Origin: a virus
Taxonomy: Duplodnaviria > Caudoviricetes
Strand: one strand, 5' to 3'
Virus record (IMG/VR): IMGVR_UViG_3300046615_000115
Span: 24,820 to 88,819 of that record
Length of the DNA: 64,000 bases
Every line of letters starts with the position of its first letter. Position 1 is the stretch's first letter. A program made the position numbers and the translations under genes. Below, piece by piece: positions 50,204-51,687 of this stretch. Under the pieces are notes generated by a model. The model saw only the letters and a program-made list of their open reading frames with translations. It ran no database searches and had not been told where the DNA came from.

Positions 50204-50440
50204 TTAATCTTCGTCCCAACTACTTGGTAGGCCATCCATCATTTTATAGAATTCAATGTCAATATACCCATACCAAGCATCTCTAATGAAAATACAAACT
50301 TCCCCTGTTGGGTGGTAGGGATCGATCTTAACATCATTTATGTGACAGTTATAACGTTTTGCAATCCAATGAATTTCTTTGTGGTAGTCCACTCTAATTT
50401 CTGGTCGTTCAAAGGAATAAGCATCTACGTATCTACTCAT
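50204..50440 (-). CDS. hypothetical protein
   Basis: 78 aa, coupled to the upstream gene. Confidence 0.8.
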   Translation of the reverse strand: MSRYVDAYSFERPEIRVDYHKEIHWIAKRYNCHINDVKIDPYHPTGEVCIFIRDAWYGYIDIEFYKMMDGLPSSWDED

Positions 50441-51687
50441 ACGCTCAATTTCTCCTCAATTGTTTTACCGCTATCTTTCCAACTCATTGTAATTGGTACG
50501 GGGTAGTCTACACCAAATCGTTTACGGAAACAATCACCCATCGTAGTAGACAACAAGTCCGCATACTTAGCTTGCACCAAAAATGAATCATGCACTGGAA
50601 GACAAGCTACATTCTTTTCAATCATCACTTCAAGAATATCATTAGCCAAGTGACTATCAGCATTCTGCAAGATGCGACCATAGCTTTCAGATGAACAGAA
50701 GCTATCAACAAACTGTGGGTAAGCATTGTAGATAAGAAGCATGACAGCACTAGCATTACCAAGTGTGTACTTCATTTTATCTTCAGCTTTCAGCAAGTTA
50801 ATCTCTTTACGGATAGCATCCTGTGCAGTTTCTTCACTGAAACAGTTAAACATGATGTTCACTGCAAGCTTCACCATACGACGATCTACTTCATTTGTCT
50901 CATCCTCAAGAATCCCTGAATATACATCCAATGGAAGGTATTCAACATCAATATCTTTCAAAGCTGCTGCTACACGAAAATGAAGATTACAGAAGTCGAT
51001 TTCACAAACATCTTGACCTTCAATCTTGATATCAAGCCGTGCATCTGTATCCCGATTCTTGATAGCAAGTACATCAGCTTTATAGAACCTACCACCATAA
51101 GCAAATGATTCATTAAAGATACGACAGTAGAAGTTAGTTAGAACTTTCCCGTTACCATCAACAATGTTGAATGATTCGTTCATATGATTAAGATTACGAA
51201 CCACCTCCTCCATCTTCTTTACATCTTGTGTGCTCCTGTAGGGAATCGAATTCTTGTTCTCATCCCGAAGCTCAATCACTTCAATCGTATCTTCGTAAGC
51301 TTTCATAGATTCCTCAATTAATTCTTCAATCTGCCATTCTTTGATAAACTTCTCTGTTGGCACAATGAAGCTAACCTCTCTCTTCTCTTTAATCTTATGT
51401 GCCTTACCTACTGTGTTTACCACATATCCTTGCTCTGTTAGGAATGCAACACACTTGATAACCTTACTAGCGTTAATACCTTTCTTACTCACTACCTTAC
51501 GGCTACTAGTCATACGACTGTAGACAAGAAGATTATTCTTCTTAAGGCAAGCAATGAGATTAGTGATAACAACACCTAATGTAGTGAGATCTTTATATCC
51601 CATATTACGTATTGAATTACTAACTCCCCTACTAACCTTAATATCATATGTAAGTAACCTAGTATTCAAGATTACATCACCACCCAT
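50437..51687 (-). CDS. miniature Pol A-superfamily / single-subunit RNA polymerase-like protein
   Basis: GGRFY (DxxGR-like), motif A EIDF, motif B RRMVK, ADSHL, motif C PVHDSF. Confidence 0.75.
   Translation of the reverse strand: MGGDVILNTRLLTYDIKVSRGVSNSIRNMGYKDLTTLGVVITNLIACLKKNNLLVYSRMTSSRKVVSKKGINASKVIKCVAFLTEQGYVVNTVGKAHKIKEKREVSFIVPTEKFIKEWQIEELIEESMKAYEDTIEVIELRDENKNSIPYRSTQDVKKMEEVVRNLNHMNESFNIVDGNGKVLTNFYCRIFNESFAYGGRFYKADVLAIKNRDTDARLDIKIEGQDVCEIDFCNLHFRVAAALKDIDVEYLPLDVYSGILEDETNEVDRRMVKLAVNIMFNCFSEETAQDAIRKEINLLKAEDKMKYTLGNASAVMLLIYNAYPQFVDSFCSSESYGRILQNADSHLANDILEVMIEKNVACLPVHDSFLVQAKYADLLSTTMGDCFRKRFGVDYPVPITMSWKDSGKTIEEKLSV

Follow-up and report, generated by a model that had tools for sequence, protein, structure and literature searches.

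To what end does a phage that encodes a replicative polymerase of its own maintain a further polymerase of barely more than 400 amino acids? This question is raised by a gene in the IMG/VR virus record IMGVR_UViG_3300046615_000115 (Duplodnaviria; Caudoviricetes). The window, i.e. the whole stretch of 64,000 bp that was analyzed, comprises positions 24820-88819 of this 88,819-bp record, and the gene is an open reading frame (ORF) of 416 codons on its minus strand (window 50437-51687). It was found to be another member of a family, divPolA2, for which two functional hypotheses have already been published. The data presented here suggest that its product is very likely active as a proofreading-free, miniaturized polymerase of the Pol I/T7 RNA polymerase (RNAP) superfamily. 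As to its role, the start of short chains at specific DNA sites is tentatively favored.

Active-site motifs and their conservation

The ORF map assigned the gene to the minus strand; the plus-strand frame at the same positions is closed by many stops. As stated in the original prediction, which had been made from the sequence alone, the translation contains five ordered polymerase motifs, namely RIFNESFAYGGRFY (R200), VCEIDFCNLH (D231, H236), DRRMVKLAVNIMFN (R269, K273, N277, N281), LQNADSHLANDI (Q341, D344, S345) and LPVHDSFLV (H366, D367, S368). Such a set of five motifs is far beyond chance. To assess conservation, 154 sequences were aligned, mostly representatives of clusters formed at 50% identity, plus published phage homologues. 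G199, R200, D231, K273 and D367 proved to be invariant (154/154), confirming that homologues keep both aspartates proposed to be catalytic. Further conserved positions are R269 (151/154), H366 (152/154), H236 (144/154), S368 (140/154), Q341 (139/154), D344 (144/154) and S345 (145/154). Since the catalytic set of the superfamily has been maintained under strong selection, the enzyme is very likely active.

The T7 RNAP strings with which the motifs had been compared were verified on the T7 record (DWRGRVY, FDGSCSGIQH, RSVTKRSVMTLAYG, HSQDGSHL and IHDSF), where the DNA polymerase (DNAP) reads TGR, IDASGLELR, RDNAKTFIYGFLYG, LQSAGA and VHDEI. From the aspartate of the DSHL motif to that of motif C there are 23 residues in the protein studied here versus 25 in T7 RNAP, a spacing as similar as had been claimed. 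The motif preceding motif C resembles both LQSAGA of T7 DNAP and HSQDGSHL of T7 RNAP. In the shape of motif A (D-x-x-x-L-x-x-R) the protein resembles Pol I, but in motif C and the motif in front of it T7 RNAP.

Features by which DNAPs select deoxyribonucleoside triphosphates (dNTPs) are absent. The glutamate of the steric gate is replaced by H236, the aromatic residue at position K+4, counted from the O-helix lysine, by N277, and HDE by HDS. Throughout the 154 sequences, position K+4 is occupied by leucine, methionine or asparagine and never by an aromatic residue, and the gate position by histidine in 94% and by glutamate in a single case. T7 RNAP carries Met635 at K+4. The O-helix tyrosine (Klenow Y766, T7 DNAP Y530, T7 RNAP Y639) corresponds to N281, by motif register and not by superposed structures; at this position (K+8), the alignment has asparagine in 130, tyrosine in 13 and phenylalanine in 11 sequences. 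The motif correspondences are based on register and on structural matches. Comparison of the family profile with the single T7 RNAP sequence by hhalign gave no match (probability 0.3%), a single-sequence target being a weak test, and the single T7 DNAP sequence was not matched either.

Predicted fold and domain organization

Sequence comparisons gave few hints at the fold. In Pfam, the protein was matched neither by DNA_pol_A (PF00476; E<=10) nor by RNA_pol (PF00940); the only Pfam signal was a sub-threshold one to the winged-helix family HTH_27. PF00476 yielded zero matches across the whole phage genome and matched 10 control genomes. Sequence and profile searches of the PDB detected no polymerase, only a weak match to the winged helix of RPA32. 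In PHROGs, the protein falls into phrog_4756, annotated as 'unknown function'.

An AlphaFold2 model was therefore of particular value. It was built from a 41-sequence alignment and reached a predicted local distance difference test score (pLDDT) of 91.3 and a predicted template modeling score (pTM) of 0.86. Foldseek against the PDB returned as top matches exclusively family-A DNA polymerases (Aquifex Pol I, KlenTaq, Bst and apicoplast Pol; E about 1e-5, probability 1.0). A second structure search, independent of Foldseek, matched DNAPs and RNAPs over 230-300 residues (Table 1). At the level of the model, the right-hand fold of the PolA/T7 RNAP superfamily including the RRM-like palm is thus confirmed. 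Structure alone cannot, however, separate a DNA from an RNA polymerase, as the Z-scores are similar for both (11.8-14.9). The model consists of a winged helix and a polymerase core only, leaving no room for an exonuclease domain. The fold, the lack of an exonuclease domain and a size about half that of T7 RNAP had all been anticipated correctly.

The same holds true for the N-terminus, which had been described as winged-helix-like. Residues 1-135 modeled alone gave a pLDDT of 90. Their top Foldseek matches were all regulators of the MarR, PadR or GntR type (E 6e-3 to 0.09, probability 0.8-0.99), and in a wide structure search, the 50 matches listed were without exception winged helices (Z 5.3-6.5). 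Though these scores are moderate, the domain was accepted because the list of matches is uniform. Between winged helix and palm, two helices (residues 121-134 and 154-171) flank a conserved ELRD..K strand in which K145 is nearly invariant. By analogy with the two-helix thumb of TV-Pol (see below), this segment is a candidate for a vestigial thumb.

Table 1. Coordinates of the features discussed in the text (window positions) and Z-scores of structures matching the model
Feature	Position	Strand	Basis	Z
divPolA2-family gene: winged helix and minimal family-A polymerase core	50437..51687	-	ORF, AlphaFold2 model, fold matches, homology	
N-terminal MarR-like winged helix-turn-helix domain, residues about 18-120	51328..51636	-	folded alone, Foldseek, wide structure search	
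Candidate vestigial thumb: helices H121-134 and H154-171 plus the conserved ELRD..K strand	51175..51327	-	model secondary structure	
Beta-hairpin Y-x-R-x-F...GGRFY with R200, counterpart of Pol I TGR and T7 RNAP DWRGR	51079..51132	-	conservation; strands E188-192, E199-202	
Motif A EIDFCNLHFR: catalytic D231; His236 where Pol I has its steric-gate Glu	50968..51015	-	conservation	
Motif B/O-helix R269-x3-K273-x3-N277-x3-N281	50845..50892	-	conservation	
Pre-motif-C LQNADSHL (Q341, D344, S345)	50638..50670	-	conservation	
Motif C LPVHDSF with catalytic D367	50572..50604	-	conservation	
Divergent intergenic region of 289 bp directly upstream of the gene	51688..51976		ORF map, skew; cumulative GC-skew minimum at 51919	
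Candidate sigma-70-type promoter TTGACA, 17-nt spacer, TGc-TAATCT	51816..51844	-	read from sequence; function inferred	
Structure match: apicoplast DNA polymerase (apPol)				14.9
Structure match: Pol nu				14.6
Structure match: Klenow				13.7
Structure match: yeast mitochondrial RNAP				13.7
Structure match: T7 DNAP				13.0
Structure match: Pol theta				12.2
Structure match: T7 RNAP				11.8
Structure match: N4 RNAPII				8.4

Affiliation with the divPolA2 family

Homology searches place the gene in divPolA2, a family that was named on computational grounds in a study on the swapping of DNA polymerases among Caudoviricetes phages (Virol J 2024;21:200, PMC11348598). According to these authors, divPolA2 occurs in 110 barbaviruses and in other phages, in one to three copies per genome, sometimes as two or three paralogues, and is always accompanied by a regular PolB. 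Its members were reported to possess neither an exonuclease domain nor a thumb homologous to that of other DNAPs, and an N-terminal domain of unknown kind for which no similarity was found; the proposal was a DNA polymerase for repair or else an RNA polymerase (PMC11348598). In the literature, the name is confined to that paper and its preprint, and there is no biochemistry on the family.

AUR84708 from Vibrio phage 1.063.O, the reference protein of that paper, was matched by BLASTP (2e-11) and, with the family profile, by hhalign (99.2% probability, E 9e-20, 351 columns); Barba19A gp041 was matched by BLASTP (3e-18). The gene shares with the published examples a length of about 420-440 amino acids, intact palm motifs, a globular domain at the N-terminus, the lack of an exonuclease domain, and a genome containing PolB and paralogues. 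On the other hand, it is only 24-28% identical to them and originates from an uncultured 88.8-kb myovirus. Two further points diverge from the published account. The neighborhood, described as variable, has a constant element in the clade studied here, which keeps the first-gene position at a divergent junction, and the N-terminal domain for which no similarity had been found is resolved as a winged helix.

The family is very large. A Megablast search against phage records gave no match, but a word-indexed search recovered 176 relatives, many of them on contigs of 83-95 kb. An exhaustive profile search retrieved 9,628 representatives of clusters at 50% identity at E<=1e-3, of which 2,981 reached E<=1e-30. 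Among the matches listed, nearly all proteins have 380-500 amino acids. Fused, longer forms were searched for and none was found, which is weak evidence for their absence.

Position of the gene and its upstream region

The gene is the first one behind a divergent intergenic region (Table 1). Its orthologues in three relatives (L009, L011 and L012) likewise lie first at a divergent junction, with 290-500 bp of non-coding DNA in front of them, and in a fourth contig (L015), a member of the other paralogue clade described below is also the first gene at such a junction (after 640 bp). In the window, the gene is followed by small ORFs and then by the structural block. In L011, small ORFs precede a Toprim primase and PolA, and in L012 small early-type ORFs follow in a long series. 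As the content after the gene differs between the relatives, a link to late genes is not conserved; only the first-gene position is kept. The co-orientation of a first gene with the late block, emphasized in the original prediction, is thus true in this genome but not a property of the relatives.

A similar restriction applies to the promoter, which had been described as a near-consensus extended -10 promoter. The candidate has a perfect -35 hexamer (TTGACA, 51844-51839) and the TG extension, but only three of six matches in the -10 hexamer, and a consensus promoter scan did not list this TTGACA/TAATCT candidate. At the aligned place, L009, which is 75% identical, reads TTGACA-17-TG-TATCAT. 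Between the promoter and the ribosome-binding site lies a 5'-leader hairpin, CTGAAGCCC-N11-GGCCTGTAG (window 51738-51766, minus strand). It is also found in L009 and L011, with weak covariation support from three sequences.

To detect a promoter set of the T7 type, repeated words were searched for. There was no 12-mer occurring at least four times in the genome, and 10-mers with one mismatch disclosed no promoter-like repeat in the intergenic regions. The best shared 16-mers in 53 intergenic regions gave 14 in the real and 14 in one shuffled control set. The sole recurrent intergenic word was the ribosome-binding region AGGAGTTTGATTATG. These searches leave room for short or structural promoters.

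The phage genome and the second paralogue

Genes for a tail sheath and a portal identify the phage as a myovirus. It had been regarded as PAK_P1-like, a premise that is too loose. Identity of its portal to that of PAK_P3/KPP10-type Pseudomonas phages amounts to only 47-50%, and the family profile matched the controls Barba19A, HNL01 and Vibrio 1.063.O but neither CHA_P1 (species Nankokuvirus PAKP3) nor UAVern. An exact direct terminal repeat of 127 bp is present at both ends of the genome. [quoted passage not shown] The ThyX-like protein (window 7031-7960) is divergent (Pfam Thy1, 6e-11), and the 739-aa product of window 8586-10805, with sub-threshold reductase matches only, is probably a very divergent class II ribonucleotide reductase. 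Three HNH homing-endonuclease-like genes are scattered over the genome (window 12616-13164 and 54928-55638, and L004:4192-4728, all on the plus strand), one of them directly after PolB.

Outside the window, the phage possesses a second divPolA2 gene, which encodes 441 amino acids on the minus strand (genome 12475-13800, corresponding to L002:1468-2793). The two proteins are only 27% identical, and the second one belongs to a separate deep clade with relatives of its own. Its motifs read TGGRWY, ELDFSAIH, RNLVKMAV, LQYLDSE and LPWHDG. Both paralogues fall into phrog_4756, the second one with the stronger match (4e-84). The cumulative GC skew has minima at genome positions 15,600 and 76,738 (window 51919) and a maximum at 37,950. 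The minima fall on the genome's two divergent junctions, and each has a different paralogue nearby, at a distance of 1.8 kb and 0.2 kb, respectively.

Directly behind each polymerase gene, an ORF of about 80 amino acids begins with a 4-nt overlap of the polymerase stop codon (window 50204-50440 and L002:1223-1471, both on the minus strand). These small downstream ORFs are unrelated to each other (phrog_1541 versus phrog_8320, no alignment), and the search for a conserved downstream partner gene recovered only such unrelated ORFs, the 75%-identical relative having yet another one. Further downstream, an ORF-free stretch of 383 bp (window 48872-49254) separates small early-type ORFs from a 1029-aa fibre-like gene. 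It contains a hairpin with a 13-bp stem (49022-49055) that was picked up by a terminator scan.

Possible roles of the enzyme

With PolB, a DnaG-DnaB-type primase-helicase and a gp2.5-like SSB encoded in the same genome, the 416-aa enzyme is not the replicase of the phage. We tentatively favor, though at somewhat less than even confidence, an early-made polymerase that is targeted by its winged helix and starts short chains at specific sites, perhaps for origin priming and with a leaning towards RNA. Lying first at a divergent control region, its gene would be expressed early from a promoter of the host type. The winged helix may then bring the enzyme to a specific DNA site, where it would start short chains, for instance a primer for initiation or a brief transcript made at an origin or control region. 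Parallels might be seen in T7 RNAP and mitochondrial RNAP, which prime replication, or in the primase-polymerases TV-Pol and CcPol. Transcription of whole gene blocks would be less likely. Short products are favored over genome-wide transcription since only a two-helix remnant of the thumb and no repeated promoter motif were found. The two deeply diverged paralogues at or near two divergent junctions suggest two different target sites. The active site itself appears to lean towards ribonucleotides, inasmuch as the gate glutamate is replaced by histidine, the aromatic K+4 residue by leucine, methionine or asparagine, and the glutamate after the motif-C aspartate by serine.

Several observations weigh against this interpretation. 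The literature holds no measured activity for any member of the family, and the phage already encodes a DnaG-type primase. A histidine at the steric gate is as bulky as glutamate and could still exclude the 2'-OH, and motif A (D-x-x-x-L-x-x-R) and Q341 are DNAP-like. As the tyrosine common to DNAPs and RNAPs is an asparagine here, analogies with either class may fail. Neither iterons nor strong inverted repeats were detected upstream of the gene, of its paralogue and of the three orthologues, where only two-copy matches at chance level occurred. GC skew was considered as an independent origin marker and discarded, because the skew follows the coding strand throughout the genome. Finally, the first-gene position equally fits an early-made transcriptase.

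Such a transcriptase would be a minimal single-subunit RNAP whose winged helix reads phage promoters of middle or late genes, with one paralogue for each of two temporal classes, comparable to phage N4 and its several polymerases. We consider this rather unlikely. The HDSF and DSHL motifs are those of T7 RNAP, neither the glutamate gate nor the aromatic residue that stacks on the sugar is retained, and there are structural matches to mitochondrial RNAP (Z 13.7), T7 RNAP (11.8) and N4 RNAPII (8.4). Moreover, the gene is the first one, driven by an early promoter and co-oriented with the structural block here, like gene 1 of T7, and genomes harbor one to three paralogues. These similarities are opposed by the lack of a repeated promoter-like motif in the genome and by the orthologues in L011 and L012, which head early or replication blocks instead of late genes. 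The role in late transcription that had originally been envisaged is not upheld by these two findings. In addition, the 290-aa core has no evident processivity apparatus, with a vestigial thumb and without an N-terminal domain or specificity loop of the T7 type, Pfam RNA_pol is not matched, and the counterpart of Tyr639 of T7 RNAP is an asparagine. The prediction of an RNAP was hence right as far as the Pol A fold and the T7-like motif C and pre-motif-C are concerned, but RNA synthesis is not established, since the Z-scores of DNAPs are as good or better.

These Z-scores also bear on one of the two options of the divPolA2 paper, an accessory DNA polymerase without proofreading that acts in repair, gap filling, translesion or recombination-dependent synthesis. 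DNAPs rank highest among the structural matches (apPol, Pol nu, Klenow, Pol theta), motif A follows the Pol I pattern and even reads DYSQL, as in Pol I, in the Barba homologue, Q341 corresponds to the minor-groove glutamine of DNAPs, and the related minimal A-family enzyme CcPol prefers dNTPs. Nevertheless, this option seems unlikely. The canonical dNTP-selecting residues (the glutamate gate, phenylalanine or tyrosine at K+4, and glutamate after the catalytic aspartate) are all replaced, a sequence-reading winged helix would not be expected of a repair enzyme, and neither would a first-gene position in several lineages combined with two or three deep paralogues. From the winged-helix domain and the adjoining control region, one might also suspect a DNA-binding regulator that is catalytically idle and has retained a polymerase-shaped scaffold. 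For a mere scaffold, however, it would be unexpected that the metal-binding aspartate pair, RxxxK and the hairpin arginine are invariant or nearly so in 154 deeply diverged homologues, and this explanation is regarded as highly improbable.

Returning to site-specific initiation of short chains, if the enzyme indeed starts chains at chosen DNA sites, this would explain origin firing in many phages with PolB and would provide a compact, targetable polymerase of about 400 amino acids. A bolder version, to which we give only a small chance, is that, among natural DNA-dependent RNA polymerases of the T7 type, divPolA2 proteins are the smallest, with a core of about 290 amino acids and a swappable winged helix. 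Each paralogue would then read a site of its own and, without depending on the host RNAP, drive either the priming of an origin or one temporal class of transcription. Apart from these considerations, the present data add to the published family the assignment of the winged helix, the family size, the residue statistics at sugar-selecting positions and the conserved first-gene position. divPolA2, with about 9,600 clusters at 50% identity in public data, is widespread in aquatic phages and has a fully conserved active site. Because this site mixes features of DNAPs and RNAPs (a Pol I-like motif A with histidine for the glutamate gate, a T7-like HDS, and asparagine for the universal O-helix tyrosine), the family is a natural test case for the evolution of sugar selection.

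Comparison with known systems

With T7 RNAP and N4 RNAPII, the protein has in common the fold, the GR-x-Y hairpin, RxxxK, the DSHL-like and HDSF motifs and a similar spacing of the two aspartates. It differs from T7 RNAP in having half its length, no T7-type N-terminal domain and a Pol I-like motif A. Furthermore, the equivalent of Tyr639 is asparagine and that of Gly542 is histidine.

That the fold can prime is demonstrated by CcPol-MP of SCCmec, a truncated A-family enzyme with a shortened thumb, which starts de novo on single-stranded DNA and is a proven primase using dNTPs (eLife 2020, PMC7581432; Front Mol Biosci 2023, PMC10061031). CcPol retains the equivalents of E710 and F762, the Pol I residues that exclude ribonucleoside triphosphates, whereas the window protein has histidine and asparagine at these positions. 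CcPol also needs an adjacent OB-fold partner (MP), while no homology connects the small ORFs that follow the window gene and its relatives.

A similar architecture is that of TV-Pol (Iyer, Abhiman & Aravind 2008, PMC2579912), a minimal PolA/T7 RNAP core of 400-600 amino acids without nuclease domains that was predicted to prime and extend. Unlike for TV-Pol, neither a D5-like helicase nor a resolvase, integrase or transposase accompanies the window gene, no helicase or recombinase neighbor was seen in its relatives, and fused longer forms were not detected either. The N-terminal domain, described as all-helical in TV-Pol, is a winged helix here. The hallmarks of TV-Pol are a two-helix thumb, an arginine in the beta-hairpin, two palm aspartates, and RxxxK plus a conserved aspartate in the fingers (PMC2579912). 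Measured against this published description, all of them have a counterpart in the protein (candidate thumb H121-134/H154-171, R200, D231/D367, and R269-K273 plus D344).

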